Below, piece by piece: positions 1-16,145 of a stretch of DNA of 64,000 bases. The notes below the pieces were generated by a model. That model had not been told where the DNA came from, made no database searches, and saw nothing but the letters and a program-made list of their open reading frames with translations. Positions within the stretch are counted from its first letter, which is position 1, and each line of letters opens with the position of its first letter. The DNA comes from Actinomycetes bacterium (GTDB lineage Bacteria > Actinomycetota > Acidimicrobiia > Acidimicrobiales > Acidimicrobilacustridaceae): assembly GCA_037139155.1 (NCBI GenBank), contig JBAXGZ010000001.1, forward strand, positions 36,845 to 100,844, read 5' to 3'. A program made the position numbers and the translations under genes.

Positions 1-3000
1 AAACCGCCACGATCGATGATCACGATTCGAGCCTCGTCGCGACCCGCAGGATCGACATGACCCTCGATCGCGTAGCGGGTGTACCCAAGCACCTCTTCAA
101 CCAACGGCTCAAGGGCAGCGAGGGTGCGTAGCGTCGAATAGGTCAAGCGATCACGCGACACGCCGGTGCTGAGAACGGACTTCACCAACGGAACCTGCAT
201 GAGGGTTTCGTCACTGCGCGAGATTCCGACGGTGACTGTCTTGGCCTGATGCTTGATGGCGTCGACAGGTCGGGTGAGTTCATCAATCGCCGAAGTCAAC
301 GCGGCCACAAGATCTTCGAGAACAACTGCTGGAGTTCCGACCTTGCCATATTCGACTTGATAGGACTCAAGCGGTACCGAACCGAGAGCGAACCGCCAGA
401 CCGTCGCGAGACGGACCGCGGTACTGGCCTCTAAGTGACCGTTGTAGTCCCCATTTCGGAGACCATCGAAATAACGCGACGCAAGGGTCGTAAGTAATGG
501 ACGTAATTGCCGGAGCATCGACTCGCCGTCGCCGGACAATCCTCCGGCCACCGCAGCGTCAATAGCAGCGCGAGCCTCGCGGAACGGTCGAGCCTGTGCG
601 TCGATCGCCAATGCAGCTTCGTAACCGAAGAGGTGGCCGACCATTGTCGAGAGGATGAAGGCCAGTCGTGGATGAACCTCGGGAACTGCAATCACCTGCA
701 GGGCGGCGGAAAAACGCTCTTCGCCCTGGGTGGCAATGACGACGGGGGCGGCCTTGTGGGCCCGGTAGATCGCTACTTCCTTGGCAACATCGTCAGCGGT
801 CGAGCCCTGAAGCCCGGCCGCGCACACCAGAATCATCGGCTCAGAAGACAGGTCAATATGCTTTTTGTCTTCGGTGCCGTCGCACGCGATTGCCTTGTAA
901 CAAAGCTCGGAGAGTTTGATCCGAACCTCCTCGGCTGCGATGCGATTGGCCCCGTTCCCCACGATCGCCCAATAGCGACGTGAGGGCGCGACCCGAGAGG
1001 CAGCTGCTTCGATGTCGTCGCGTAATGCGAATGTGCGCTCAAGCGCATCCGGTATTTGTCGCAATCCATCAAGGACTGCCGACCGGTCAGGAGAAGTTGC
1101 TCCCATAGCGTCGGCGAGTGCGGCCGCAAGCAAGAAACAAGCGGCGATCTGTGCGTAGAACGCTTTGGTCGATGCAACGCTCATCTCGACGTCGCGACCA
1201 TCGGATGTGTAGAGAACGCCATCGGCTCGATCGGTGAGATCACTATTGCGTCGATTCACGATCGCGATGACATGAGCACCGCGAGCGCGAACCAAATCGA
1301 CCGTTCGATTGGTATCGGTCGTCGTCCCGGACTGACTGACAGCGACCACGAGTGTGTCGTCCATCGAATCATCGAGGTGGAATCCACTCAGTTCCGTTGC
1401 CAGGATCGATTCAGCCGTAATCGGGGCCGACGGCGCGAATGCCGCGAGACCTTCGAGAAGTGCCCGGCCGGCAACGGCAGCAGTGCCTTGGCCAATGGCG
1501 AGGACTCGAGTGATCGTGCCGTCAGCCAATGCACGACGCACATCAGGAGACAACACGTCGTCACCGAGGACCACATCTGGGTGGCCGTCGATCTCAACGA
1601 GTTTTCCGCGCAGAGTCTTTCGGAACGAGGCCGGGGCTTCGCCGATTTCTTTGAGAAGGAAATGAGGAGAATCGCCGCGGTCGATGTCACGGGTGGTGAT
1701 CTGTGCCTCGGCGAGATCGTCTTCGGTAACCGGAATTGCGGTTCCGTCGTAGGCCCAACGCTCAATGCCCGCACGTTCACCAGCGCGACGTCCGAGGAGT
1801 CGTACCACCTGACCACTACTCGCCGGATTTGAAGGGTCGATGGGAACATCACCATCAAGGCGCAGGTACGACGACGTTTCCTCGACAACCCCGTAGGGCT
1901 CACTCGCAACAATGAACGAGTCCTCGGCAATGCCGATATACAGCGCTTGGCCACTGCCACGAAGGGCAAGGAAAAGTGAGTCGGCCGCATCGGCAGCACT
2001 CGCAGCAATCGCCACCGAACCCTCGAGTTCGTTCACGGTGGATCGGAATGCATCAAGCACACCAGTTCCGTCGGCCATGGCGCGGGAGGTAAGCGTGGGG
2101 ATGACTTTGGCGTCGGTCGTGATCTCGTCGGCGATCTTCAGTGACTGCGCCGCCTTGAGATCGGCGAAGTTATCGACATCTCCATTGAGAACAGCGGTGA
2201 CGTATGCGCCTTCGGTCTCGTCAATTTCGTCGGAGTTCAGCGGATGGGCATTGGGCTGGCTGATGATGCCCACACTCGCCCATCGCGTATGCCCAAGAAC
2301 AACAGCTTCAACCGTGTCCGAACCCAGCGCGTGGCGAAGTAGCGGATCACTCATGATCGCGGTGCGTAGAGCGCGGGTGTTGTCGCCTAGTTCCCCGATC
2401 TCAGCTGCGGCTTTATAGACGAAACTCAGGTGACCTTCCGGAGTCCGCACGGCCATCGATCCGAAAAGTGGGTCGGCGGCGCGATCGGCGATCACCGCGC
2501 GAAGTGCCGGTGACGAGAGATCAAGGCCGTGATTGCGGACGAGTAGGTGGAGTCCCGCGCTGTCGCGCCCGCGCACCTCTAATCGATCGAGGGCTGACAG
2601 TGCTTGATGAACTGAGAGGGCAACGCCGATAGCTGCAGGAGCCAGCGGTTCACCAACCGGACCGACGCCCTCAAGCAGGGAGCTCACTCCATCGACAGCC
2701 CGGAGCCGATCGCGCTGCACCGCCCAGACCGCATCCTTCAGTTCGATGACTGCAGCGTTGAGTCGCTCAAGATCGCGACCGGTCATCTCCCGCTGGCCAT
2801 GTGCATCGGAATCGAGATGACGCTCAAGTTCGGCCACCTGACGGGCCAGACCGTCGATCAGGTTCTCGGCAGCCACGCGCAGCCCTGGGGCTTCGAGCAA
2901 CGCTCGAACACCAGCAACACCGCGGAGCGATCGATCGGCATCGGCGACGGCGTGAGCAGCATCAACGACGGGGCGATCGGTGACAGGACCGGCCGCGCCA

Positions 3001-3122
3001 CTCCGGGAGGCCATGATGGCGGCCAATATCTCTGAGGCCACCGCGAGGCGGTCGAGGACCTCGGCCGAGCCCGGGGGCTGGCGGAGCGATGGACGTCGGA
3101 CGACGGCAATGATCCCGCACAT
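1..3122 (-). CDS. glmS: Oversized glutamine--fructose-6-phosphate aminotransferase-like protein (>1040 aa, 3' end outside window)
   Basis: Absent from the ORF track because there is no stop in the window. Translated by hand from ATG 3122 in spot-checked segments: MCGIIAVV, DRLEVRGRDSAG, LGHTRWAS..NAHP, IKLSELCY, EDKKHID, HQAKTVTVG. Lies directly downstream of glmM. Confidence 0.85.
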   Translation of the reverse strand, partial: MCGIIAVVRRPSLRQPPGSAEVLDRLAVASEILAAIMASRSGAAGPVTDRPVVDAAHAVADADRSLRGVAGVRALLEAPGLRVAAENLIDGLARQVAELERHLDSDAHGQREMTGRDLERLNAAVIELKDAVWAVQRDRLRAVDGVSSLLEGVGPVGEPLAPAAIGVALSVHQALSALDRLEVRGRDSAGLHLLVRNHGLDLSSPALRAVIADRAADPLFGSMAVRTPEGHLSFVYKAAAEIGELGDNTRALRTAIMSDPLLRHALGSDTVEAVVLGHTRWASVGIISQPNAHPLNSDEIDETEGAYVTAVLNGDVDNFADLKAAQSLKIADEITTDAKVIPTLTSRAMADGTGVLDAFRSTVNELEGSVAIAASAADAADSLFLALRGSGQALYIGIAEDSFIVASEPYGVVEETSSYLRLDGDVPIDPSNPASSGQVVRLLGRRAGERAGIERWAYDGTAIPVTEDDLAEAQITTRDIDRGDSPHFLLKEIGEAPASFRKTLRGKLVEIDGHPDVVLGDDVLSPDVRRALADGTITRVLAIGQGTAAVAGRALLEGLAAFAPSAPITAESILATELSGFHLDDSMDDTLVVAVSQSGTTTDTNRTVDLVRARGAHVIAIVNRRNSDLTDRADGVLYTSDGRDVEMSVASTKAFYAQIAACFLLAAALADAMGATSPDRSAVLDGLRQIPDALERTFALRDDIEAAASRVAPSRRYWAIVGNGANRIAAEEVRIKLSELCYKAIACDGTEDKKHIDLSSEPMILVCAAGLQGSTADDVAKEVAIYRAHKAAPVVIATQGEERFSAALQVIAVPEVHPRLAFILSTMVGHLFGYEAALAIDAQARPFREARAAIDAAVAGGLSGDGESMLRQLRPLLTTLASRYFDGLRNGDYNGHLEASTAVRLATVWRFALGSVPLESYQVEYGKVGTPAVVLEDLVAALTSAIDELTRPVDAIKHQAKTVTVGISRSDETLMQVPLVKSVLSTGVSRDRLTYSTLRTLAALEPLVEEVLGYTRYAIEGHVDPAGRDEARIVIIDRGG

Positions 3123-3134
3123 GAGAAAAACAGC

Positions 3135-4484
3135 CTAGGCCGAGCAGGCGCGAACGACGGCTGCAACAAGGTTGCCAGCGGCCGCTTCGGCCTGCTCCAC
3201 GGTTGGAGCCTCGACCATGACCCTCACTAATGGTTCGGTCCCACTCGGACGGATAAGGACGCGGCCCCGGGTGCCCAGAGAAGCTTCGACCGCCGCCACC
3301 TCTTCAGCAATCGCTTCGGCCAGGAATTCCGCGATGTCATCCCGAGGAGTTTCAAGCCTCACATTGCGCAGCACCTGAGGAAGTCGCTCCATGACCTGAG
3401 CCGCAAGTTCGGAAAGCGGCGCCTCTGAGCGACTCACGAGGTCGACCAAACGCACACCGGAAAGAATTCCATCGCCGGTCGTGGCGAGATCGGCGAAGAC
3501 GATGTGTCCGGACTGTTCGCCGCCAAGTGAACTTCCCGTGCGTGCGAGCGCTTCGAGCACATGGCGATCACCAACTGGTGTTTCGACGACGTCAATGCCT
3601 TGCGCCTCCATCGCCAGACGGAATCCAAGATTCGACATCACCGTGACGACGACCTGATCGTTGGCGAGCAAACCCCGTTCACGCAGGTCGCACGCAAAGA
3701 GCGCGATCAATTGGTCACCGTCGATCAGGTTCCCGAGTTCATCGACAGCGAGAAGGCGATCAGCGTCGCCGTCGAATGCGAGACCAAGAGCGGCACCCGA
3801 TCCAACGACCGCTCGCTGCAGTGATTCGGGATGAGTCGAGCCGCATTGGTCATTGATATTGCGTCCGTCTGGTTGCGCATGCAGCACTTCGACATCGAGA
3901 CCGAGCGACCGAAAGATCTGCGGCGCAACCGAAGATGCTGCGCCGTTGGCGCAATCGATGACGATGCGCAATGGCGCGACCGATTCGACCACAGCTCCGA
4001 TCGCGTCGCACCACGCTCTGACCGAAGCTTCAGTGTCAGTGTCAGCCGCCGCTACCGCCGCGCGCGGTGAACTCTTTGGCTCGGCAACGAGTGCCTCCAG
4101 TGCCGTATCAAGTGCCGATTCGAGCGCGCTCTCGAGTCCATCGGACAACTTGCGGCCGCCAGCCGCGAAAAACTTGATGCCGTTATCGGACCACCGATTG
4201 TGGGATGCCGAAATGACCGCACCGGGAACATTGCGCTGCGCGCACACCCATGCCACCGCGGGAGTGGGCACGACCCCCATCCGCAATGGTTCGGCATCGC
4301 CGCGCAAAAGACCGGTCGCAAGTGCATTCGCGATTCGCTCTCCCGATTCACGGGTGTCGCGGCCAATGACGAACGTCGTCGCTCCAAGTACCTGCGCCGC
4401 GGCCTGTCCCAATGCGATAACGAGCGCGTCTGTGAAGTCCGACGCGGGCCCACGCACACCGTCGGTACCGAATCGGAGAGTCAT
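3135..4484 (-). CDS. glmM: Phosphoglucosamine mutase
   Basis: FGTDGVRG, ISASHN, FDGDADR, GGEQSGH and RPSGTEP motifs. Confidence 0.96.
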   Translation of the reverse strand: MTLRFGTDGVRGPASDFTDALVIALGQAAAQVLGATTFVIGRDTRESGERIANALATGLLRGDAEPLRMGVVPTPAVAWVCAQRNVPGAVISASHNRWSDNGIKFFAAGGRKLSDGLESALESALDTALEALVAEPKSSPRAAVAAADTDTEASVRAWCDAIGAVVESVAPLRIVIDCANGAASSVAPQIFRSLGLDVEVLHAQPDGRNINDQCGSTHPESLQRAVVGSGAALGLAFDGDADRLLAVDELGNLIDGDQLIALFACDLRERGLLANDQVVVTVMSNLGFRLAMEAQGIDVVETPVGDRHVLEALARTGSSLGGEQSGHIVFADLATTGDGILSGVRLVDLVSRSEAPLSELAAQVMERLPQVLRNVRLETPRDDIAEFLAEAIAEEVAAVEASLGTRGRVLIRPSGTEPLVRVMVEAPTVEQAEAAAGNLVAAVVRACSA

Positions 4485-4501
4485 AGCCCGCCGTGCTGGG
4501 A

Positions 4502-4894
4502 TTAGCGCTTCGAGTACTGCGGAGCCTTACGGGCCTTCTTGAGGCCGTACTTCTTCGATTCCTTCTTGCGATCATCGCGAGTGAGGAATCCGGCCTTCTT
4601 CAGTTCACCGCGAAGCTCGGGATCAAGTTCGATGAGTGCACGGGCAATACCGTGACGAAGCGCGCCGGCCTGACCAGAGATGCCGCCGCCATCGATGTTG
4701 CACACGATGTCGTAGACCTCGTCGGTGCTCGTGAGACGAAGCGGTTCGGTGAGGATCATGCGATGTGTCTCGGACGGGAAGTAATCGACGACCGGACGCT
4801 TGTTGACGGTGATGGTGCCTGTGCCAGGACGAAGCATGACGCGTGCAACTGCACGCTTACGACGACCGGTTGACTGAACGAGGGGGTTCGACAT
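4502..4894 (-). CDS. rpsI: 30S ribosomal protein S9
   Basis: [22 protein letters not shown]-terminal KAPQYSKR. Confidence 0.99.
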
Positions 4895-4911
4895 TGTCTG
4901 TTCCTGACCGC

Positions 4912-5358
4912 TCAGCGAGCCTTGGCGTGGGCGAATTCGATGGTTTGCGGATCCTGCGCGGCGTGGTTGTGAACCGGGCCGGCATAGACCTTGAGCTTCT
5001 TGATCATCTGGCGACCAAGACGATTCTTCGGGATCATCCCGCGAACGGCGCGACGCACCGCTTCTTCGGGCTTGTCCGCGATCAACTGACCGTAGGTCTT
5101 GGTGCGCAGACCACCCGGGTAACCAGAGTGACGATGCACGAAGAGCTTGTCGCCCTTGTTCGAGGTGAGCACGACCTTGTCAGCGTTAATCACGATGACG
5201 TGATCGCCAGTGTCGATGTGCGGGGTGTAGGTCGGCTTGTGCTTGCCGCGGAGGATCGTGGCAACTTCCGTCGCGAGACGACCGAGAACCATGCCTTCGG
5301 CGTCAACGACATACCACTGACGCTGGATCTCACTGACCTTTGGGGTGTAGGTGCGCAT
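4912..5358 (-). CDS. rplM: 50S ribosomal protein L13
   Basis: [32 protein letters not shown]. Confidence 0.99.
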
Positions 5359-5445
5359 GGCGCAGCCCTTCTGCTTGGGTCCACCCGAAGGTGGCTATCG
5401 AACGAAGTCCGGCGTCGGCAGCAAAACTGCGCACCGGAGCGGAGG
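5359..5445 (-). promoter_or_regulatory. Structured rplM 5' leader (possible L13 autoregulatory element)
   Basis: CCACC-UUCG-GGUGG hairpin (5381-5394) and a UCCGGUG/CGCCGGA stem enclosing GCAG/CUGC. Family assignment is inference. Confidence 0.4.
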
Positions 5446-5449
5446 AGAG

Positions 5450-5479
5450 AGCCTACGGGTAGGCCCCGAACCAAGGCAA
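5450..5479 (-). promoter_or_regulatory. SigA-like promoter for rplM-rpsI
   Basis: TTGCCT-N18-TAGGCT on the minus strand. Confidence 0.5.
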
Positions 5480-5511
5480 CTCTGCCCCCTCGGGGCCGAA
5501 TTTTCCCGGCC

Positions 5512-6363
5512 TCAGTAGCCGACCTCCCACAAGCAGAGACCCTGCGGTGGCGCTACCCCACCGGCCACCGAGCGGTCGTGCGCTCGAATAATTCCGGCCA
5601 TTTCGCCCGGTCGACGAAGGCCTCGGCCCATTTCTACAAGGGTGCCGACGATGGATCTGACCATTTGATGGCAGTAGGACGAGGCTCGGATGTCGAAGCG
5701 CAAAACCCCTTCGCCAAGATCCAACCAGGTGGCTTCATGGACCCGTCGCATCAGCGATGGTTCGAATCCGGTCGCAGGATTTGGCTTGGGCCGGCGACAG
5801 AAACTCGAGAAATCGTGGAGACCGTAGAGAGCATCGCAGCCGAGGTAAAGCGCGCGGATGTCGAGTTCCTGGGGCACCCACCAGGTTGTGGCAGCAAGGA
5901 ACGGATCGGGGATCGGTCGATTCACGATGGTGTAGCGATAGGAACGCCAGAGAGCTGAGAACCGAGCATCGAAATCAGGACCGGCGACCTGTGCATCGCG
6001 AATCACGATCGCTGGGACACAGAGCTGGTTAATTGCTCGAGCTAACCGTGTCGGCGAACCCTTCCCCGACACGATGAGTTCGGTCGCAACATCAAAGGAA
6101 ATCACCTGACCCCAAGCGTGCACGCCCGCATCGGTACGTCCAGCGATCGACAAGGCAACGGGGTGTTCGACACAGCGCTCGATTTCGGCGCGAACCGTGC
6201 CCGCAACCGTTTCGACGCCGTCGTTCTCGGCCATCCCCCGGAACTTCGAACCGTCGTAGGCGAGCGTCATTCGAAGACGCGTGAACCCGGCAGTCGGCGC
6301 CGGGACCTCGATCGGCGTGCGCGAAACGGCCGACCACGTTTGGTCGGCCGTCATCACAGACAT
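5512..6363 (-). CDS. truA: tRNA pseudouridine(38-40) synthase
   Basis: LAYDGSKFRG, AGRTDAGVHAWGQV, FDARFSALWRSYRY, HQMVRSIVG. Start is 6363 or 6354. Confidence 0.96.
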   Translation of the reverse strand: MSVMTADQTWSAVSRTPIEVPAPTAGFTRLRMTLAYDGSKFRGMAENDGVETVAGTVRAEIERCVEHPVALSIAGRTDAGVHAWGQVISFDVATELIVSGKGSPTRLARAINQLCVPAIVIRDAQVAGPDFDARFSALWRSYRYTIVNRPIPDPFLAATTWWVPQELDIRALYLGCDALYGLHDFSSFCRRPKPNPATGFEPSLMRRVHEATWLDLGEGVLRFDIRASSYCHQMVRSIVGTLVEMGRGLRRPGEMAGIIRAHDRSVAGGVAPPQGLCLWEVGY

Positions 6364-6379
6364 TTTCGTGCTGCTGGTC

Positions 6380-6733
6380 TCAGACCAGCTCGATGCGTGC
6401 CATCGGCGCATTGTCGCCTTGACGCGGGCCGAGCTTCAGGATGCGGGTGTAGCCACCCGGGCGTCCTTCATAACGCGGTGCGATGTCGGAGAACAGCTTT
6501 GACGCCATTTCCTTATCACCCATGAACGACACGACCTGACGGTGACGGTGGACGCCACCCTTCTTGGCCTTGGTGATGAGCTTCTCGGCGATGGGACGAA
6601 GCGCCTTCGCCTTCGCTTCGGTGGTGACAATGCCCTCGGCCGCAAACAACGAGGCCGCGAGGTTCGCCATCATCAGGCGTTGGTGAGAGGCGCTACCGCC
6701 GAATCGTTTGGACCTACGTGGGGTTCCAGGCAT
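6380..6733 (-). CDS. rplQ: 50S ribosomal protein L17
   Basis: [28 protein letters not shown]. Confidence 0.98.
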
Positions 6734-6739
6734 AGCGAA

Positions 6740-7678
6740 TCAATCCCGGTTCTTGAGCGACAGACCGCGCTCATCGAGTTTCTGGATGACCTCATCAAGC
6801 GACTTCTGACCAAAGTTGGTCACCGCAAGAAGATCGTCCTCGGACTTGAGGAGGAGTTCACCGACGGTGTTCACCTGGGCACGCTTGAGGCAATTACGGG
6901 GACGCTCGGAAAGATCGAGATCCTCGATAAGGAGGTCGAGATCGGGCGAACCAGCGTGAGTAATGCTGACCTCGCCGAGTTCGAGACCCTTCGGCTCGTC
7001 GCTCATTTCGGCCACAAGCGTGACCAGCGACTGGAGGGTTGCCCCGGCTGAGGCAAGTGCTTCACGAGCGGTGATCGAACCGTCGGTCTCGATGTCGAGA
7101 ACCAGACGGTCGAACTCGGTCGACTGCTCGACGCGAGTCGGTTCGACTGCGAAGGTCACACGACGCACCGGCGAGAAGATCGAGTCAACCGGGATCACAC
7201 CAATGGTGTTGGTCGACTTGTTGCGCTCGGCCGATACGTAGCCACGACCCTCTTCGACGGTGACGTCGACGGCGAGTCGACCCGACTCGTTGATCGTGGC
7301 GATGTGGAGCTCCGGATTGAGGATCTCAACGTCGGAGGTCGTGACGATGTCACCTGCGGTGACGACGGCTGGACCCTTGACATCGATTCGGAGCGTCACC
7401 GCATCAGCACTGTGAACCCGAAGGACAAGGTCCTTGAGGTTCAAGATGATGTCGGTGACATCCTCAGTGACACCCTTAATGGTGTCGAATTCATGGAGAG
7501 CCTCGTCGAACCGCACCTGAGTGACGGCTGCGCCGGGGATTGATGAGAGAAGGGTGCGGCGCAATGAGTTGCCGAGCGTGTGGCCGAAGCCAGGCTCCAG
7601 CGGTCCCACCGCGAACAACTGACGATCGCCATCGGCGTCGCCAAGCGCTTCAACCTTCGGTCGCTGCATAACCAGCAT
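6740..7678 (-). CDS. rpoA: RNA polymerase alpha subunit
   Basis: PLEPGFGHTLGNSLRRTLLSSIPG, alpha-CTD NFGQKSLDEV. Confidence 0.99.
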   Translation of the reverse strand: MLVMQRPKVEALGDADGDRQLFAVGPLEPGFGHTLGNSLRRTLLSSIPGAAVTQVRFDEALHEFDTIKGVTEDVTDIILNLKDLVLRVHSADAVTLRIDVKGPAVVTAGDIVTTSDVEILNPELHIATINESGRLAVDVTVEEGRGYVSAERNKSTNTIGVIPVDSIFSPVRRVTFAVEPTRVEQSTEFDRLVLDIETDGSITAREALASAGATLQSLVTLVAEMSDEPKGLELGEVSITHAGSPDLDLLIEDLDLSERPRNCLKRAQVNTVGELLLKSEDDLLAVTNFGQKSLDEVIQKLDERGLSLKNRD

Positions 7679-7761
7679 GTGTTCCTACCTCGGTTCCGTA
7701 CGTTCGATTTCGTGAACTTGCACAAGAGCGTGATCGACGGCGTCGACCAGGCCCGGGGCAC

Positions 7762-8379
7762 TTACTTGGAATAGAGCTCGACGATGAGCTGCTCGCGCAC
7801 CGGCACGTCGATCTGATCGCGATGTGGTGCTGCCAGAACGGTGACACTGAAGCCACCGTCGCCAGACTCGAGCCACGCCGGAGGCGTGCGATCGAGAACC
7901 TCGCGGTTCCACTGGATAACGACCAACTCGCGGGTCTTGTCGCGAAGAGTGATGATGTCGCCCTTACGCACGCGATAGCTCGGGATGTCGACGCGCTTGC
8001 CGTTGACATTGATGTGTCCATGGCCCACGAACTGACGAGCCTGAGGACGAGTCGCTGCCCAACCGGTGCGGTACACGACGTTGTCGAGACGCATCTCGAG
8101 GAACCGGAGCATGTTCTCGCCGGTCACACCCTCGCGACGGTTCGCTTCCTCATAGAGGTTGCGGAACTGCCTCTCGGAAAGTCCATACGTGAAACGCGCC
8201 TTCTGCTTTTCCTGCATCTGGAGCAGGTACTCGCTGGGGTTGCCACGGCGACGCGTACGTCCGTGCTCGCCTGGTGGGTATGGGCGCTTCTCGAGGGCGA
8301 CAGTCTCGCCCTTCGTGCCGAAAATGTTGGTGCCGAGACGACGCGAAACGCGGGCCTTCGGGCCGGTATAACGAGCCAT
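7762..8379 (-). CDS. rpsD: 30S ribosomal protein S4
   Basis: MARYTGPK, QEKQKARF, RLDNVVYR, ELYSK. Start trimmed to ATG 8379. Confidence 0.99.
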   Translation of the reverse strand: MARYTGPKARVSRRLGTNIFGTKGETVALEKRPYPPGEHGRTRRRGNPSEYLLQMQEKQKARFTYGLSERQFRNLYEEANRREGVTGENMLRFLEMRLDNVVYRTGWAATRPQARQFVGHGHINVNGKRVDIPSYRVRKGDIITLRDKTRELVVIQWNREVLDRTPPAWLESGDGGFSVTVLAAPHRDQIDVPVREQLIVELYSK

Positions 8380-8381
8380 GT

Positions 8382-8780
8382 TCAGACCCTCCGACGCTTG
8401 GGCTGACGGCAACCGTTATGCGGAACCGGAGTGACATCCTTGATTCCGGTCACTTCGATGCCAGCACTCTGGAGGCTGCGGATCGCCGTTTCACGACCGG
8501 AACCCGGTCCCTTGACGAGCACGTCGACCTTGCGGACGCCATGTTCCATGGCGCGCTTGGCGCATTGCTCGGCAGCCATCTGCGCTGCAAACGGCGTCGA
8601 CTTACGCGAGCCCTTGAAGCCGACGTTGCCGGCCGAAGCCCACGACAGAATGTTGCCGTCCTGGTCGGAGATGCTGACGATGGTGTTGTTGAACGAGCTC
8701 TTGATGTGAGCGACGCCGTGAGTGACGTGCTTGCGTTCCTTCTTGCGGGGCCGACGGCCGCCGCTTGTGGGCTTTGCCAT
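8382..8780 (-). CDS. rpsK: 30S ribosomal protein S11
   Basis: [23 protein letters not shown]. Start ATG 8780 overlaps the rpsM stop. Confidence 0.99.
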
Positions 8781-9157
8781 CAGCGCGCCACCTTCTTCTT
8801 GCCGGCAACGGTCTTCTTGGGACCCTTGCGTGTACGTGCGTTGGTGTGAGTGCGCTGACCGCGAACGGGAAGACCACGACGATGGCGCAGACCCTGGTAG
8901 CAACCGATCTCCATCTTGCGACGGATGTCCTGATCGACGTCGCGACGCAGATCGCCTTCGACCTTCAGGCTGGCATCGATGTAGCCACGAATCTTGTTGA
9001 CCTCTTCGTCAGTGAGGTCGCGAACTCGGGTATTCGGACTGATTTCAGTGGCTTCACAAATCTGCTTGGCAGTTGTGTTACCGATTCCGTAGATGTAGGT
9101 AAGGCTGATTTCCAGGCGCTTTTCACGCGGGATATCAACACCGGAGATACGTGCCAT
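8780..9157 (-). CDS. rpsM: 30S ribosomal protein S13
   Basis: [25 protein letters not shown]. Confidence 0.99.
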
Positions 9158-9160
9158 GGA

Positions 9161-9274
9161 TCAGCCCTGCCGTTGCTTGTGACGAGGGTTTTCACAAATG
9201 ACCTGCACGCGACCATGGCGGCGGATCACCTTGCACTTCTCACAGATCTTCTTGACGCTTGGGCGTACTTTCAC
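9161..9274 (-). CDS. rpmJ: 50S ribosomal protein L36 (Zn-binding type)
   Basis: Hand translation from GTG 9274: [37 protein letters not shown]. Too short for the ORF track. Confidence 0.98.
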
Positions 9275-9390
9275 TGCGTTTGTTCCTTTCGCCCGGACTC
9301 TGCCGGGAACATCGGAGCGAAGTTGTGAGCCGAAGCCACACCCCTCCGATGGGTCCGATCCTTCTGATCAGACACTCGCTTGTGTTCAGT

Positions 9391-9426
9391 TGTCGTGTTG
9401 CTGGTGTTGCTGGTGTTGCTGGTGTT
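9391..9426. repeat. 9-bp tandem repeat (AACACCAGC)x3 plus a degenerate fourth unit
   Basis: Minus strand reads T-AACACCAGC-AACACCAGC-AACACCAGC-AACACGAC, beginning inside the infA TAA stop. Confidence 0.85.
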
Positions 9427-9649
9427 ACTTGTACCGATAAGTGATCCGACCACGAGTCAGGTCATACGGCGTCAGCTCAACTTGGACGCGATCACCGGGC
9501 AGGATACGGATGTAATGCATCCGCATCTTTCCGGAGATATGGGCCAAAACTTTGTGGCCATTTTCGAGTTCGACGCGGAACATGGCGTTCGGCAGCGGCT
9601 CGGTGACCGTTCCTTCCAGAACGATCGCGTCTTCTTTGGGCTTAGCCAG
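9425..9649 (-). CDS. infA: Translation initiation factor IF-1 (CTG start inferred)
   Basis: [41 protein letters not shown] lies 8 nt upstream of an in-frame CTG at 9649. Confidence 0.97.
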
Positions 9650-9855
9650 GACACTGTCTCCTGTGTGATGGATCTGAAAACCCTGCTCAGGACCGCGCAA
9701 AGGCGGGTTCCCGGACAAGGGCGGACTGAAGACCCTACCGGTCGGACCCGCTGGCTCCAAATGCGCCTCTGAAGGGCCGAGAGAGTGCGATCGCTCTGGC
9801 CGCCCTCAGGGGTACACCAGTTCGACTGTAATCTTCGCTTCCTCTTCGACCCCGA

Positions 9856-12800
9856 TCACGATTCCTTGCGGAGCGCGAGGTGAAACGAGGTGAATGTCCG
9901 CCCCATGTGCTCAAGCAGGATATGGGGATAACGGGCATAGGTGACGTGGTGCGTCCAAAGTCCGCCGAGCTGCGCAACCTGGCGATTTTGGTCTTCAGCA
10001 ACGTCAAGGAAGGGTGAGCGCGACGCCCAGGTCTCGGGGGACACCGAAGCATCGAACGGTTCAATCAACGACCACTTTCGATCGCCGAGGAAGACCGTTC
10101 GGATGTCCTCGTCATCAAAGAGCAGAGCCCCAGGGATCCCTGGGCGATCACCCTCGAGGCGGAACTCGGAAGCGACCGAGAGAATTCCCCCGGGACGCAG
10201 GACTCGCCACGCCTCGTCGAGCGAACGTGCCACGTCGTTTCGGTCACCGAAATGCTCAACGGAACTCGACGAAAACACACCGGAGACGCTCTCGTCGGGA
10301 AGGTCGAGCGCGAGGGCGTTCATATCCTCCACTCGCAGGCGCGTCGGGTCCCAAATGAACGGCCAGTGTCGTCCTGGATTGACGAGCATCGAAGAATCAG
10401 CGCTCTCATCCCAGCCTTCGGCTAGGTAGAGATCAGTCGCGATGACCTCCTTCGCGAAACGGGTCAGATAGAACACGGTCGGTTCATTTCCCGCACCAAC
10501 ACCGAGGAAACGATGAGATCCGTCGAGCAAACCAGCCTCGCGAAACGAGAGAACGGCCATCGCTACTTCCCAGTATTTGCGATATTCACGAGCCGATGGG
10601 AACTCGGGACCGAAACGCAGCAGCTCATGCGCAAACACATCACGAATCACATCGCGAAGTCGCGGTGTCACAAAATCTTCGACCTCACAAATTTTCGAAA
10701 GGGAGAGGTTCCGTTCAAGGAGTAACGGTTTCTCGATCACTAGTTCCGAAGCACGATCTTGAACACGAATCGCGGGGAGATCTTCGCAGAGCCACTCGGT
10801 GACTCTCCGAAATTCTTCCTCGAAGCGAAGTGGATCGACGTTCGAGCGATAGCGATCGGTTTGGATCGCAACGAATGTGGATCGATTCGCGACTGTGGCT
10901 CGGAGCGCTCGCAACGCGTCGATCGGATCGTTCGGTGAGAAATTCCAGGGTCCGTTACCGAGCAATTCATCGTGCGCCGCAATCGAAGACAACACGACTG
11001 GGGTTCCGCGTTCAAGGGACTCAATAACCGAGAGTGAAAAACCTTCATGAAGCGACGGGATAATGACCGCTTCAGCACTCCGAAGTATCGAATCGAAATC
11101 GTCATCCGCGATCTGACCTCCAATTCGAAAGCGATTCCGTTCAAGCCCTAGCTCTAGCGCCAGCGTCGTCAACGCGACCCGATGCTCATCGGACATCGAG
11201 GCAATGACGACGACATCGAGATCGGTTCGATCCAGAACAGCAAACGGAACTGCTGCCGCCACACCCACAAGGAGATTTTTGTGCGGGAGCCCATTTCCCA
11301 CAACGACAACGTGTGATCGTCGAGTCGTTCGTGATTCTCTCCCTGCTTGCGTCACTGATTCGCCCAGCCGTGTCAATCCCGGCGCACATCCCGTTTCTAC
11401 GATGCACTCGGGGCGAACCCCCAACTCGATTGCCTCGGCAGTCGACGACGCGGAAAGAGTAAGCAGCTTCCCGTACCCCCCGATGCATTCAAGTCCATAT
11501 TGATACTCCAGAAACTCAGCATCTGTTCTCAAAAAACTGTCTGGGTAGGTTCCCATAATCGAATCAAGCCACACTCCAGCGCTACGCACCGATGGCGACC
11601 TCGACAACCGCACCTGTAGATCGGTTTTTCGGTGGATAAACGGGGCTAACTGAAGAAAAGATCCAACCCGTCGACCATTCTCCCGTCCCCATACGCCGTC
11701 GAATCGCTCAGCAAGGTCCGCCGGAAGTGGCGGTAAGTCCATCGAAGCAAGTTGCCATACCTCTACGGCATCAGGAACCGAAGCAAGAACTACCTCGAGG
11801 GCATTTCGAGCATGGGTGCGTGTGCCACACATGACCGCCAACTGGGCCCCTCGAGTGTCAATCAAGAGCACTTTCGGCCAATCAACATCTCCTGCCGGGT
11901 CTGTGCCTATCGAACGGAACCTTCGCAACTCGCTCAGCCCCGCCGCCGCGGCCTCGTCTCCTGAAAGCGATTCGATGAGTTCCCACTCCCGATCGTCAAG
12001 CAACAGTGGTGATGTTGTTCGTCGGGAACGGAGACGAGCAGTGACGGACTTTGCCATTTTGTGAGAACCGGAATGATCCGAGATGGTCGCGGTTCTCGAA
12101 CCAATGGTCGGCGCAATCCGCTCGAAGGCACGACCCGGAGCACTGAACTCGGCGACTTTTGCTTGGACGTTCGATGGATTGCTCAATTGCTTGCGCCGAA
12201 GTCGCCAGAGGTGGTTGGCGAGGGGGAGCACGAGTACCCGAAACGGACGGGCGAGTTCCACAAGCACTCGGCCAAGTTCGTACTCCCAACTTGCCTCAAG
12301 GGCCCAGATGCGATGTTCGTTGGAGTTTGCCCGATGTTCTTCAGCAGCAATCCGAGCGTCGCGTTGTTTGAGTTCCTCCCGACTTTGCCGCAACGCGACT
12401 TCGGCTTCCTTTACTTGCTTATCTCGCTCAAGCACTGCGCGGGTCAGTTGCGCCTCTGCCTCACCGTGTCCTTCACCGAAGGCTGCCTTCTGAAGCGCTT
12501 CAAGCAACGGCCATTGGAAAAATCCATCGATTGGAGAAACCGGTTGTGCGAGACGTTGCCGCAGGTCGGGTCGGTCTGCTCTTGAGTAGAACCGATTGAT
12601 CCCATCATCGATCGAGAATTCATACCCCGCTTCGAGAACAACTGGTTCCCAACTCGCATGGGACGGTGCCCACGTCGACGGGTCTATTGATTCAATGACC
12701 AACACCAAAGGACGGAAACGTTTCCAATCATTGGAGGAAATAACTTCTTCTTCGGCTCCCTCAACGTCGATCTTTAAAAACCCAATTTCTCGGTTTTCCA

Positions 12801-13224
12801 AGTAGCGGTCGAAAAGCTCCTTGAGAGTAAGAGATTGCACAGCAACAATTTCTCTCCGCTCATCGAGTGCACCGGAGAATGTCTCGGCCTCGGTATAGAT
12901 CGAGGAAAGATCGAGGTGGGGATACCGCAAGGTGAATTCAATCTCTCCCGAACGACGCGAAACGGCAACCTGCAAAGTCAGATCGCGGGGACGCTCACTC
13001 GATAGGAGTGATGCATTCGGACCCGGCTCAACATTGATGCCGCTCCAACCCCTTTCGGAAAAGAGTCGGGTCACCGAGAAATCTGTCGGATGCCCGGCAC
13101 CAATATCTACATAGATGCAGTCGGTCTCAGTCGATAACGCCTTCCAGAGACGGACATCTTCGAAGTTCTGCGCGTAGGAAATCGGTGCGACGTGTACCTG
13201 ATCGTCACCCTCAACAGAAGTCAT
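9856..13224 (-). CDS. Multidomain FkbM methyltransferase + coiled coil + GT4 glycosyltransferase + class I SAM methyltransferase (1122 aa)
   Basis: FkbM: SYAQNFED, YVDIGAG, GINVEP, LKIDVEGAE. Heptad-rich segment EAEAQL...ALEASW. GT4: PSLHEGFSLSVIES, GTPVVLS. C-terminal methyltransferase: FLGVGAG, SSSSVEHFG. Confidence 0.8.
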   Translation of the reverse strand: MTSVEGDDQVHVAPISYAQNFEDVRLWKALSTETDCIYVDIGAGHPTDFSVTRLFSERGWSGINVEPGPNASLLSSERPRDLTLQVAVSRRSGEIEFTLRYPHLDLSSIYTEAETFSGALDERREIVAVQSLTLKELFDRYLENREIGFLKIDVEGAEEEVISSNDWKRFRPLVLVIESIDPSTWAPSHASWEPVVLEAGYEFSIDDGINRFYSRADRPDLRQRLAQPVSPIDGFFQWPLLEALQKAAFGEGHGEAEAQLTRAVLERDKQVKEAEVALRQSREELKQRDARIAAEEHRANSNEHRIWALEASWEYELGRVLVELARPFRVLVLPLANHLWRLRRKQLSNPSNVQAKVAEFSAPGRAFERIAPTIGSRTATISDHSGSHKMAKSVTARLRSRRTTSPLLLDDREWELIESLSGDEAAAAGLSELRRFRSIGTDPAGDVDWPKVLLIDTRGAQLAVMCGTRTHARNALEVVLASVPDAVEVWQLASMDLPPLPADLAERFDGVWGRENGRRVGSFLQLAPFIHRKTDLQVRLSRSPSVRSAGVWLDSIMGTYPDSFLRTDAEFLEYQYGLECIGGYGKLLTLSASSTAEAIELGVRPECIVETGCAPGLTRLGESVTQAGRESRTTRRSHVVVVGNGLPHKNLLVGVAAAVPFAVLDRTDLDVVVIASMSDEHRVALTTLALELGLERNRFRIGGQIADDDFDSILRSAEAVIIPSLHEGFSLSVIESLERGTPVVLSSIAAHDELLGNGPWNFSPNDPIDALRALRATVANRSTFVAIQTDRYRSNVDPLRFEEEFRRVTEWLCEDLPAIRVQDRASELVIEKPLLLERNLSLSKICEVEDFVTPRLRDVIRDVFAHELLRFGPEFPSAREYRKYWEVAMAVLSFREAGLLDGSHRFLGVGAGNEPTVFYLTRFAKEVIATDLYLAEGWDESADSSMLVNPGRHWPFIWDPTRLRVEDMNALALDLPDESVSGVFSSSSVEHFGDRNDVARSLDEAWRVLRPGGILSVASEFRLEGDRPGIPGALLFDDEDIRTVFLGDRKWSLIEPFDASVSPETWASRSPFLDVAEDQNRQVAQLGGLWTHHVTYARYPHILLEHMGRTFTSFHLALRKES

Positions 13225-13278
13225 TTTGGATCAAAATCTCCGCATAGATATCGTCAATCTTCGGTGCGTACGGGCACC

Positions 13279-13290
13279 TAACGTAGCCCT
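13279..13290 (+). promoter_or_regulatory. Possible -10 element giving a leaderless transcript
   Basis: TAACGT ends 6 nt before ATG 13291, with no Shine-Dalgarno sequence. Confidence 0.35.
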
Positions 13291-14760
13291 ATGCCACCTG
13301 ACGTCCACCCGTTTCCCATGGGTGCCGCCCGCAGTCTCCAACTTCTGTCGAAGTTGCTTTCTTCGCCGGTCGTTGTGATCGATGCCGGAGCGCGATGGGG
13401 TGTCATGCCTTCGTGGTCCGCCCTCGGTAACCAAGTGAATGTCATTGGATTTGAACCCGAACCAGAAGAGGCTCGTGAACTTGAGTCGAAGTATCGCGAC
13501 GATGACCAGATTGAAATCGTGGCGATGGCGTTGGGATCGACGGCAGGGAACATTCCTCTGAAAGTCACGCCAGATGCGTCGGGATCTTCGTTCTACACTC
13601 CAAATATTGGTGACCGGATGTCACCAGGTGTTGATCTCGACGTGGTCGCGACTATCAACGTTGAAATGACCACACTCGACGATTGGGTCGCTTCTTCGCG
13701 ATTCGATCGAGTGGATGCCATGAAACTCGACGTTCAGGGTGCGGAATATGAAATATTTCTCGGCGCATCTGATTCGCTTTCGACAACACGAATCCTCCAA
13801 ACCGAAATGCATATGAATCCCCTGTACGAGGGAGCGAAACTTTTCGGGGACAATGATGCTCTTCTCCGAAGTCATGGTTTTGAGTTGTGGATGCTCCCAA
13901 CGCTTGCCCACTACCGCCCAAACCGCGATGGCGGCGCCGTCATAGATCGCGTCGATGTTCATTGGTTCAATGACATTCCTGTTCCCGTTCCCACCGAAGG
14001 AGCACAACTTTCTTGGGCCGACGCGATCTACATAAAGAGTGATTTCGCGCGCATCGTTGATGGCACCTCCGCGGAATCCCTCCTGCGCGATGCCGTTCTT
14101 GCGATTGGCATGGACCAATTTTCACTTGCGATTGATGCCCTGAATGCAGCGAGGTCGCTCGCCAAGCCTGAGACTCATGCCGTCATCGATGCTGCTGCTT
14201 TGTCGTTGCGCTACCAATCGCCCAGTCTCGCCTTCGCAAACTCCCGGATAGCCCACCTCGACTCGATCGCCCAACCGCTCACCGATTCCTATTCGGTCGA
14301 TTTGCGCGCACCCCTTAACGGATGGGGATGGCATGACCCGCTTCCAACTCCCGATGGTGGATGGATCCGCTGGACCGGTCCGCAACGAGAGTCGTCCGTG
14401 CATATCCCCATCACGTTGGACGTTGGTTCGATCATCAGAGTCGTGGTTGTCCGCGCTGCTGCCGCTGAACTCATCGAGTCAGTTGTCCTTGAGGTAAACG
14501 GAGTTGTCGTCGAAACCGTTCTCACTGAATCGGAAATCGCCGGTATTCCGACCTTCATCATCGAAGGTCGCGTTACTCACACTTGGGAAGAATCCCATTC
14601 GCGACTGATTCTGCGGGTGGCGAAAACCGTGCCGTGGAAATCAATTGATGAGTCTTCGAACGACGCGACCGAATATGGGATTGCCATCAAGGACATCACC
14701 GTCTCGCCGGAAAAATCGACGTGGCGAACTCTGCTCGTGAAGAAGTTCAGGGGAGCGTAA
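13291..14760 (+). CDS. FkbM family methyltransferase with C-terminal beta-rich domain (489 aa)
   Basis: VIDAGAR, VIGFEP, MKLDVQGAEYEIFLG, QLSWADAIY. C-terminal GWGW..IRWTG..LEVNG segment. Overlaps the map stop convergently by 14 bp. Confidence 0.8.
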   Translation: MPPDVHPFPMGAARSLQLLSKLLSSPVVVIDAGARWGVMPSWSALGNQVNVIGFEPEPEEARELESKYRDDDQIEIVAMALGSTAGNIPLKVTPDASGSSFYTPNIGDRMSPGVDLDVVATINVEMTTLDDWVASSRFDRVDAMKLDVQGAEYEIFLGASDSLSTTRILQTEMHMNPLYEGAKLFGDNDALLRSHGFELWMLPTLAHYRPNRDGGAVIDRVDVHWFNDIPVPVPTEGAQLSWADAIYIKSDFARIVDGTSAESLLRDAVLAIGMDQFSLAIDALNAARSLAKPETHAVIDAAALSLRYQSPSLAFANSRIAHLDSIAQPLTDSYSVDLRAPLNGWGWHDPLPTPDGGWIRWTGPQRESSVHIPITLDVGSIIRVVVVRAAAAELIESVVLEVNGVVVETVLTESEIAGIPTFIIEGRVTHTWEESHSRLILRVAKTVPWKSIDESSNDATEYGIAIKDITVSPEKSTWRTLLVKKFRGA

Positions 14761-15490
14761 GAATTTCGGGGCCATCGGGGCCGATCGCAATGGTGTGTTC
14801 GAAGTGGGCAGCCCAAGATCCGTCAGCCGAAAGCACCGTCCAACCGTCCTCGGTAAGGAAGGTCTCGGCCTCGCCAATGGTCACCATCGGCTCCACGGCG
14901 AGGGTCATGCCCTTCTTGAGCTTCCCGCCCTTCCCCGGCACCCCGTAGTTGGGAACCTCCGGGGCCTCATGCATGGCTCGCCCGATGCCATGGCCTACAT
15001 AGTCGCGGACCACTGAAAAGCCGGCCTGCTCAACCACGGCCTGAACCGCGGCACCGATGTCACCCAGCGTGTTGCCCTCGACCATGGCTGCGATGCCCGC
15101 GGCCAGTGAGGCCTCGGTCACCGAAATGAGTCGAGCCGCCTCGGGAGAGATTTCCCCCACCCCGGCGGTAAATGCGGCATCGCCATGCCAACCCTCGACC
15201 ACCGCACCACAATCGACGGAAATGATGTCGCCCTCGTTGAGCACGATTGGGCCTGGGATGCCATGGACGATCACGTCGTTGGGTGACGCGCAGATGACTG
15301 CGGGGAAGCCGTGATAGCCGAGGAAGTTCGACGTCGCTCCCCTGTTGTCAATGACTTTCCGTCCGATGGCATCGAGGTCGGCAGTGGTGACACCAGGACG
15401 AATCGCAGCGCGGATCTGTTCGTGCATCTCGGCGACGACACGACCGGCGGCGCGCATATGTCGAAGTTCGTCCTGCGAACGAGTTTTCAT
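14747..15490 (-). CDS. map: Methionine aminopeptidase type I
   Basis: SVDCGA, WHGDAAFT, GHGIG, AVEPM, AHFEHT. Confidence 0.98.
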   Translation of the reverse strand: MKTRSQDELRHMRAAGRVVAEMHEQIRAAIRPGVTTADLDAIGRKVIDNRGATSNFLGYHGFPAVICASPNDVIVHGIPGPIVLNEGDIISVDCGAVVEGWHGDAAFTAGVGEISPEAARLISVTEASLAAGIAAMVEGNTLGDIGAAVQAVVEQAGFSVVRDYVGHGIGRAMHEAPEVPNYGVPGKGGKLKKGMTLAVEPMVTIGEAETFLTEDGWTVLSADGSWAAHFEHTIAIGPDGPEILTLP

Positions 15491-15497
15491 TCGAAAC

Positions 15498-16145
15498 TCA
15501 GCGCGAAAGACGAGTGTCGATGGTGCTCAGAAGACGACCAAAGACCTCGTCGGGACTACCAAGTCCGTCAACTTTGACCAACAAACCTGACGATTCATAA
15601 AAGTCAATGGTTGGTTGGGTTTCTGTGGTGTAGGCAGCAAGGCGCTTGGCAATTGATTCGGGGGTGTCGTCCGCGCGTTGAACAACTTCGCCCCCACACT
15701 TATCGCACACCCATTCCGTTGACGGCGGCGCGGCGACGGAGTAGATCGCCCCGCATTGTGCACACACGCGGCGAGATGAAATACGCTCAAGTACAACGTC
15801 TTCAGGAACGACAAGGTCGATCGCGACATCGATGGTTGCGAACTTCGACATCCCTTCGGCTTGCACAACCGTGCGCGGAAAGCCGTCAAGAAGAAAACCG
15901 TTTGCTTGCACATCGGCTTGGTTGAGTCGTTCTTCCACCACGCCGAGAATGATCTGGTCCGAGACAAGGCCACCGGCGTCCATCACGGCCTTCGCTTCGA
16001 TGCCAAGAGGCGTACCGGCGGCAACCGCAGCGCGCAGCATGTCTCCGGTGGAGATGTGCGGAGTTCCGTAATGCGCTGAAAGCCGCTCGGACTGAGTGCC
16101 CTTGCCTGCTCCCTGCCGTCCGAAGATGAGCAGACGAGCGGTCAT
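15498..16145 (-). CDS. adk: Adenylate kinase (long Zn-lid type)
   Basis: GRQGAGKGT, HISTGDMLR, LLDGFPR, lid CAQC...CDKC. Confidence 0.98.
   Translation of the reverse strand: MTARLLIFGRQGAGKGTQSERLSAHYGTPHISTGDMLRAAVAAGTPLGIEAKAVMDAGGLVSDQIILGVVEERLNQADVQANGFLLDGFPRTVVQAEGMSKFATIDVAIDLVVPEDVVLERISSRRVCAQCGAIYSVAAPPSTEWVCDKCGGEVVQRADDTPESIAKRLAAYTTETQPTIDFYESSGLLVKVDGLGSPDEVFGRLLSTIDTRLSR

Follow-up and report, generated by a model that had tools for sequence, protein, structure and literature searches.

The window considered here, namely, the whole 64,000-nucleotide stretch of DNA that was analyzed, comes from a freshwater Acidimicrobiia genome and contains a gene, P0001, that encodes a protein in which two predicted methyltransferase domains flank a single predicted glycosyltransferase (GT) domain. 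Examination of the surrounding region revealed P0001 to lie on the minus strand inside the ribosomal-protein superoperon where, together with a second, plus-strand gene, P0002, it separates map from infA in the order secY-adk-map/P0002/P0001/infA-rpmJ-rpsM-rpsK-rpsD-rpoA. The open reading frame (ORF) delineated in the initial annotation is intact and lies exactly at the coordinates given there; the frame is open across 3369 nt (1122 codons) with no internal stops. The positions of the features discussed below, numbered according to the window, are listed in Table 1.

Table 1. P0001, its predicted modules and the surrounding insert.
Feature	Position	Strand	Basis
P0001, whole gene: FkbM, helical stalk, amphipathic helix, GT4, class I methyltransferase	9856..13224	-	1122 aa; ORF, Pfam, AlphaFold2, ~28 full-length homologues
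FkbM methyltransferase, N-terminal, residues 15-236	12517..13182	-	PF05050 (E 2e-24), TIGR01444, invariant columns, AlphaFold2 fold
Helical spacer, residues 238-311 (continuous helix 252-311), candidate coiled-coil stalk/ruler	12292..12513	-	AlphaFold2, family heptad periodicity, heptad-step lengths
SW.YR.GR motif and Arg-rich amphipathic helix, residues 312-347, candidate membrane-surface anchor/docking helix	12184..12291	-	Hydrophobic moment, motif conservation
Retaining GT4-type GT-B glycosyltransferase, complete, residues 388-815	10780..12063	-	Pfam Glycos_transf_1 and Glyco_trans_1_4, Foldseek, match to ManT (7QSG)
Class I S-adenosylmethionine (SAM) methyltransferase, C-terminal, residues 838-1122	9859..10713	-	Pfam Methyltransf_11, invariant columns, large stand-alone family
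P0002, FkbM methyltransferase (489 aa), divergently transcribed from P0001	13291..14760	+	Pfam; AlphaFold2 (pLDDT 81); ~20 homologues
Insert between map stop and infA leader (~4.98 kb), replacing ~22-36 bp of sister genomes	9768..14746		blastn against empty sites in G021, G014 and G003; GC3

Domain layout and conservation of P0001

When Pfam matches to P0001 were judged against curated cut-offs, all three catalytic modules scored above them. FkbM (PF05050) matched residues 40-203 (E 2e-24; 86.9 bits against a cut-off of 22.7), with the NCBIfam fkbM_fam model (TIGR01444) also matching at 50 bits (cut-off 37.7). Glycos_transf_1/Glyco_trans_1_4 matched residues 638-780 (E 3e-12; 47 bits, cut-off 26.4) and Methyltransf_11 matched residues 907-1016 (E 5e-10; 40.2 bits, cut-off 21.2). 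The Pfam match termed GT4-conflict spans only the 40-residue EX7E region and was read as generic GT4 similarity. Those parts of the protein lacking a Pfam match are covered by an AlphaFold2 monomer model built on 24 homologues, with a mean predicted local distance difference test (pLDDT) score of 79. Here, an FkbM fold (residues 15-236) is followed by a short helix (238-248), a 60-residue helix (252-311), further helices at 313-347 and 350-360 (pLDDT ~90 over residues 340-360), a disordered linker, a two-lobed GT-B fold (388-815), a second disordered linker and a Rossmann methyltransferase fold (841-1122). The motifs SWEYELGRVLVELARPFRV, EGFSLSVIE, GVGAG and SSSSVEHFG begin at residues 312, 727, 908 and 985, respectively. 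As such, the four-module order first proposed from the DNA was confirmed by both Pfam and the model, with each of the quoted motifs being found where it had been placed. A search of P0001 and P0002 with PADLOC returned no match to any defence system.

The catalytic modules were next considered in an alignment of 24 sequences sharing 37-91% identity. In the FkbM domain, invariant residues include D40, G42 and A43 of the SAM-binding loop (VDIGAGHP), K151, D153, E155, G156 and E158 (LKIDVEGAE), and D207-Y213. In the GT domain, G467 and H471 (CGTRTHA), G643, H648, K649 and N650, as well as the two glutamates of the EX7E motif (E727 and E735), are invariant, as are G908, G910 and G912 (LGVGAGNE), D931, FSSSSVEHFG and RVLRPGG in the C-terminal methyltransferase, the most conserved module of the protein. 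Degenerate catalytic residues in either methyltransferase had been named as grounds for rejecting the proposed enzyme; instead, the signature residues of both, and of the GT, are invariant and, judged from such conservation, all three catalytic modules look functional.

By Pfam, Foldseek and motif residues, the central module is GT4-like and predicted to adopt a retaining-type GT-B fold. Foldseek aligned residues ~400-815 of the model over 380-430 columns to whole retaining GT-B enzymes, namely, SenB, MshA, PimA and ManT, indicating that the module is complete and comprises more than the C-terminal lobe. At the sequence level, the best match in the Protein Data Bank (PDB), obtained with a family profile, was ManT (7QSG; E 8.5e-15, 57 bits), followed by matches of no more than 39 bits; the similarity to ManT is modest in score and confined to the C-terminal lobe. 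Along with the invariant residues, these findings bear out the earlier description of a GT-B/GT4 domain with an EX7E signature, followed by a distinct class I methyltransferase. A stand-alone form of this last domain accounts for more than 590 clusters at ~50% identity, named merely 'SAM-dependent methyltransferase', with one stand-alone member sitting in a glycan cluster. The C-terminal module of P0001 represents a large, highly conserved and wholly uncharacterized family, often encoded beside glycan genes.

A word-indexed search of ENA, JGI, NCBI and Logan assemblies revealed ~28 full-length relatives of P0001 (1079-1227 aa; 37-91% identity), 12 of which are 1122-1132 aa long, and two named metagenome-assembled genomes (MAGs) were each confirmed to carry the gene as one ORF (1139 and 1165 codons). 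That P0001 comprises separate genes wrongly joined in assembly or annotation, or else a decaying pseudogene, is barely credible. Full-length relatives in independent assemblies refute the idea of a fusion artefact, a concern raised when the gene was first described, as do the open frame, the identical or near-identical protein lengths in at least 12 clusters across ENA, JGI and NCBI assemblies, and the catalytic residues invariant in all three modules. The one observation in favor of such an artefact is that, in two long-read MAGs (L102 6399-9874 and L032 9950-13392), the orthologue is split between two or three ORFs, encoding, for example, a 955-aa FkbM-GT protein and a 177-aa methyltransferase; these copies come from error-prone long-read assemblies and probably reflect assembly frameshifts.

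Among the 150 best representatives of clusters formed at 50% identity, the order FkbM-helix-GT(-GT) was seen 41 times, GT-methyltransferase 17 times and exactly FkbM-GT-methyltransferase three times. In Leptolinea sp. UBA5203, a Chloroflexota MAG (L084 9983-14898), three adjacent genes, matching the module order of P0001, encode an FkbM protein (374 aa), a protein with two GTs (827 aa) and the conserved methyltransferase (422 aa), while Dormibacteria and Vicinamibacteraceae MAGs encode permuted fusions, with the GT coming first and the methyltransferase and FkbM domains last. Such adjacent genes and permuted fusions lend 'Rosetta-stone' style support to the association of the modules. Distant FkbM-helix-GT-GT relatives lie in cell-wall glycan clusters that include an LCP ligase, GDP-sugar genes and Wzy_C.

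The helical stalk and its base

The spacer that follows the FkbM domain is rich in Ala, Glu, Arg and Gln, contains nearly no Pro or Gly and presents one hydrophobic stripe every seven residues (V264, V271, L278, L285, I292, A299 and I306). In 19 divergent relatives, the spacers of which can barely be aligned, a consistent 3.5-residue hydrophobic periodicity was detected (Fisher p 4e-9). When measured from one conserved anchor to another, the spacers of the various relatives were 45, 52, 54, 59, 61, 68, 73, 76, 80, 83, 87, 98, 108, 129, 132 and 145 aa long. Changes in length were traced along a minimum spanning tree based on identity outside the spacer. In six of the 12 length-changing edges, the change was an exact multiple of 7, as compared to an expected ~1.7, with three more corresponding to 7n+3; the binomial probability of at least six of 12 at 1/7 is ~0.004, a value to be read with the edges not being fully independent. 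A Rayleigh test on the distinct lengths was suggestive at most (period 3.5, p=0.02; period 7, p=0.11). At the level of the family, there is thus good support, drawn from sequence comparison, for a putative register-constrained coiled coil of variable length. Sixty helical residues would span ~9 nm, with the range in the family being roughly 5-20 nm.

Directly after the spacer comes the SW.YR.GR motif, conserved among relatives, at the start of an Arg-rich segment. The hydrophobic moment of residues 312-333 (0.59-0.60) lies in the 99.5th percentile of P0001 windows, with a period of 3.6-3.67 residues (p 0.01-0.03). The amphipathic segment pointed out in the initial annotation is hence strongly amphipathic, ranking in the top 0.5% of the protein. 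No convincing transmembrane segment was seen in P0001 or P0002. By analogy to the base of the WbdD coil, residues 312-347 could serve as a peripheral membrane anchor or docking helix.

The islet, its partner gene and other glycan genes

In sister species of the same genus, the gap between map and infA measures ~150 bp. GC content at third codon positions (GC3) is 0.56-0.58 in the two inserted genes, as compared to 0.71-0.72 in map, secY and rpoA, and a full-length copy of P0001 is found in ~5 of 24 species genomes of the genus. The map-infA site holds alleles of two classes, these being 75-91% and ~48-50% identical to P0001. P0002 accompanies P0001 at this site in the window and in G019 and is missing from L025, L026 and L029, the last of which also lacks map, while more distant P0001 orthologues are located elsewhere in the genome. 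The islet is horizontally acquired and strain-variable and behaves like a small, replaceable flexible-genome unit, with strongly conserved flanks serving as its anchor. For one of the most conserved operons in bacteria to contain such flexible-genome content, namely, a variable glycan islet of 5 kb, with different lineages having divergent alleles at this site between map and infA, is unusual. Inspection of the insert borders by eye revealed no direct repeats or att-like sequences. A promoter and terminator scan of positions 9300-15600 yielded fewer sites than did shuffled sequence and was hence uninformative.

The sequence GGCGCATTTGGAGCCAGCGGG.C.GACCGGTAGGGTCTTCAGTCCGCC (9721-9767), located upstream of infA and 89-93% conserved in sister genomes, has its start precisely at the right insert border and may be an infA leader or promoter element. 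In the Acidimicrobiia MAG ZLKRG30 (L029/L011, 1-3900), a P0001 homologue (48% identity) comes directly after adk; the operon map gene is missing between adk and infA, with only a second, ~40% identical map paralogue being found in the assembly. Two methionine aminopeptidase genes were present in every genome examined (G005, G015, G011, G019, G014, G021 and G003), the second encoding a protein of ~310 aa that is ~40% identical to the operon copy. Elsewhere, a GlmS-like protein (GATase_6 and SIS domains) encoded downstream of glmM is ~1150 aa long in this lineage, about double its usual size (window 3-3122, minus strand; L001 20017-23369; L011 10019-13489).

The AlphaFold2 model of P0002 comprises an FkbM domain (~26-250), a four-helix bundle (261-326) and a beta-sandwich (334-472). 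The FkbM domains of P0001 and P0002 are merely 27% identical. Approximately 20 P0002 homologues are encoded on contigs that also carry P0001 homologues, the latter being down to 42% identical and including GT-methyltransferase forms without an FkbM domain of their own. P0002 is a frequent, although dispensable, companion of P0001 homologues. A PDB sequence search with P0002 returned nothing meaningful, while Foldseek returned methyltransferase matches only, with none for the beta-sandwich. The divergent intergenic region between P0001 and P0002 (13225-13290) is 66 bp long and relatively AT-rich, with neither gene being preceded by a Shine-Dalgarno sequence; the start of P0002 may instead be Met10 (13318), where the 480-aa database entry P0193 begins.

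The only Wzm/Wzt cluster in the genome lies outside the window, on contig C75 of G000 (1-11617), and is unlinked to P0001. This cell-wall glycan cluster comprises rmlC-rmlB-rmlD, a GT2, a DUF2142 membrane protein, Wzm, Wzt, a further ORF and a GT4, and is preceded by a protein of at least 624 aa made up of ~110-residue repeats (GWA.DPDT...VHVYVDG...). Of 31 genomes of the genus, 29 encode a full-length Wzt, which is hence core.

Proposed function and comparison with known systems

The reading of P0001 that is put forward here, tentatively and with slightly less than even confidence, is that of a functional enzyme for glycan assembly, located in the cytoplasm or bound peripherally to the membrane, of the 'terminator - coiled-coil - polymerase' kind. 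In such an enzyme, the retaining GT4 module would use a nucleotide sugar to extend a glycan at the membrane face, with the probable acceptor being a lipid-linked glycan of the cell envelope for which core genes are responsible; the nearest solved relative of the module uses GDP-mannose. The adjoining C-terminal class I methyltransferase would O-methylate sugars during their addition, while the N-terminal FkbM domain would be held at the far end of a ~9-nm stalk, the base of which would carry the amphipathic helix. Once the chain reached the FkbM domain, this would methyl-cap its end, in which manner stalk length would influence product length. The product could be a doubly O-methylated surface glycan or glycolipid. 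The acceptor, the sugar, the division of labor between the methyltransferases, oligomerization and the ruler function are what we infer. Pointing in this direction, alongside the intact motifs, the heptad signal and stepwise spacer lengths of the family, the amphipathic segment, the conserved fusion and the adjacent or permuted module genes of other phyla, are the order of an FkbM domain, the helices at 252-311 and 313-347 and a GT-B domain, as in the ruler class, the presence in the genome of Wzm and of a Wzt with a Wzt_C-like C-terminal domain, albeit one scoring below the Pfam cut-off, and the finding that distant FkbM-helix-GT relatives are common and lie in cell-wall glycan clusters.

Several observations weigh against this assignment. 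In P0001 taken alone, the heptad signal is weak relative to shuffled sequences (period 3.5, p=0.24; period 7, p=0.035), such that, of the heptad-rich helix originally described, the long helix and the heptad signal of the family hold, whereas the heptads of P0001 itself are poorly marked. The polar 'a' positions of its spacer would also be compatible with one stable, solitary helix or with weak dimerization, and an AlphaFold2 monomer model carries no information on oligomerization. With just one GT module, the possible outcomes are a homopolymer or the addition of one residue, and the naming of one methyltransferase as capping and the other as decorating is presumptive. Moreover, no wzm/wzt, priming transferase or full sugar-nucleotide pathway was found within 10 kb in at least five contexts, so that the wzm/wzt neighborhood suggested in the initial annotation was absent wherever it was sought. 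The ruler class is marked by a Wzm/Wzt ABC transporter encoded alongside, with a cap-recognizing carbohydrate-binding module on Wzt; here, the C-terminal domain of the C75-encoded Wzt (405 aa) matches Wzt_C at 22-25 bits, below the cut-off of 30.4, and Wzt does not co-vary with the accessory P0001, because the transporter is core to the genus. Overall, the original idea of a terminator equipped with a ruler stands with respect to the functional-looking modules, the helix and amphipathic segment, the conserved fusion and the ruler-like domain order, and falls with respect to novelty in principle and wzm/wzt linkage.

It is possible, if doubtful, that P0001 is instead a decorating enzyme, in which the GT4 module would attach one sugar, as a side branch or terminally, to a cell-wall polymer, glycolipid or glycoprotein already made by core genes, the two methyltransferases would methylate it at different positions and the helix would serve merely as a dimerizer or scaffold; were this so, the islet would simply diversify surface chemistry between strains, for instance against phages or grazers. 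The low-GC3, accessory islet, in which P0001 can stand alone and which is devoid of precursor, primer or export genes, would suit such a role, as would the single GT module, the weak heptads of P0001 and the presence of the core Wzm/Wzt-rml cluster whether or not P0001 is present. Still, a threefold range of spacer lengths in heptad steps, with the catalytic domains being conserved, is hard to explain for the mere dimerization helix of a one-shot transferase, and the domain order is that of characterized ruler enzymes.

Rather unlikely is that P0001 is a cytoplasmic synthase of a polymethylated polysaccharide, like the mycobacterial 3-O-methylmannose polysaccharide (MMP), with a membrane-associated GT4 module elongating an alpha-mannan, one methyltransferase acting on each residue, the other blocking the end and the helix setting a short, defined length. 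The best solved relative of the GT module is indeed ManT, the MMP alpha-(1->4)-mannosyltransferase (PMC9883506), and the MMP cluster likewise encodes one GT4 enzyme and two methyltransferases with no exporter; P0001 similarly comes from an Actinomycetota host and lacks linked export genes, and one of its relatives has a GDP-mannose-pyrophosphorylase-like gene 5 kb away. The similarity to ManT is, however, limited to the C-terminal lobe and modest in score, no PDB match to MeT1 was obtained at E<=1, there is no adjacent MmpH-like hydrolase, the distant FkbM-helix-GT relatives are encoded in cell-wall clusters alongside an LCP ligase and Wzy_C, and a patchy, strain-variable distribution is more typical of surface glycans.

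Returning to the terminator - coiled-coil - polymerase assignment, its boldest form, which we regard as improbable, would have P0001 act as a self-sufficient, horizontally mobile, one-gene machine that polymerizes a homoglycan, methylates its every residue and caps its length, with whole-heptad changes in the stalk tuning that length and with the gene residing as a replaceable allele in the ribosomal-protein superoperon, to be expressed together with the translation apparatus. If so, the 'molecular ruler' principle of O antigens would be linked to the polymethylated polysaccharides of Actinomycetota. If the stalk acts as a ruler at all, the coiled-coil polymerase-terminator strategy would reach past Gram-negative O antigens and one Firmicute S-layer glycan, being used also by freshwater Acidimicrobiia not yet cultured and by members of a number of further phyla, there equipped with an FkbM cap and an integral second methyltransferase. 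Orthologues with stalks ranging from 45 to 145 residues would then offer a ready natural test of length control.

In the published paradigm, the terminator is distal on a coiled coil and the GT modules are proximal, with the coiled coil marking the strategy (PMC11231755). Taken as one of principle, the claim that the P0001 architecture had not been described was accordingly set aside, given that single chains that both polymerize and terminate, comprising an N-terminal methyltransferase or other terminator, a coiled coil and GT modules, have been characterized in Klebsiella pneumoniae O7 ORF6 and O12 WbbB (PMC11231755), along with WsaE (PMC2943079). O7 ORF6 is a single chain in which a terminator that includes a methyltransferase stands at the N-terminus, a coiled coil occupies the center and GT module(s) follow at the C-terminus. 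Unlike P0001, it contains a non-FkbM methyltransferase, a kinase and a carbohydrate-binding module, generates a methyl-phosphate cap, has two GT2 modules and lacks a methyltransferase at its C-terminus, with its gene belonging to a Gram-negative O-antigen locus, where wzm/wzt and rml genes are its neighbors. WbbB of K. pneumoniae O12/Raoultella terrigena (Williams et al. 2017, cited in PMC11231755) also joins terminator, coil and GTs in one chain, although here the terminator is a beta-Kdo glycosyltransferase (GT99), two polymerizing GTs are present, the protein is trimeric and its gene is linked to wzm/wzt. WbdD of Escherichia coli O9a/O8 (PMC3482155; Hagelueken et al. 2015) combines a methyl-based cap with a coiled-coil ruler, at the base of which an amphipathic helix binds the membrane, as proposed for P0001. 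It differs in having no GT, recruiting WbdA instead, in its non-FkbM methyltransferase, in the additional kinase of the O9a enzyme and in the C-terminal position of the amphipathic helix.

WsaE of Geobacillus stearothermophilus (PMC2943079), a soluble, trifunctional enzyme in which an N-terminal O-methyltransferase caps the chain that the GT domains extend, provides a Gram-positive precedent for fusing a methyltransferase to GTs. Yet WsaE contains two rhamnosyltransferase domains, lacks both a second methyltransferase and any described coiled-coil ruler, and is encoded in an slg cluster that overlaps wzm/wzt. The mycobacterial MMP system (ManT, MeT1, pMeT3 and MmpH; PMC9883506) resembles P0001 in relying on one retaining GT4 enzyme and two methyltransferases with no exporter, differing in that these are separate proteins, with no FkbM domain or coiled coil reported, and in including a dedicated hydrolase and a cytoplasmic product. 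The principle is hence known and the domain families are ordinary, with only the particular combination found in P0001 being uncharacterized. What is new is the joining of an FkbM cap domain to one GT4 and to a second, deeply conserved methyltransferase of an uncharacterized family, the occurrence of this combination in Acidimicrobiia and other little-studied phyla, the natural heptad-stepped length series and the variable islet at the map-infA junction.

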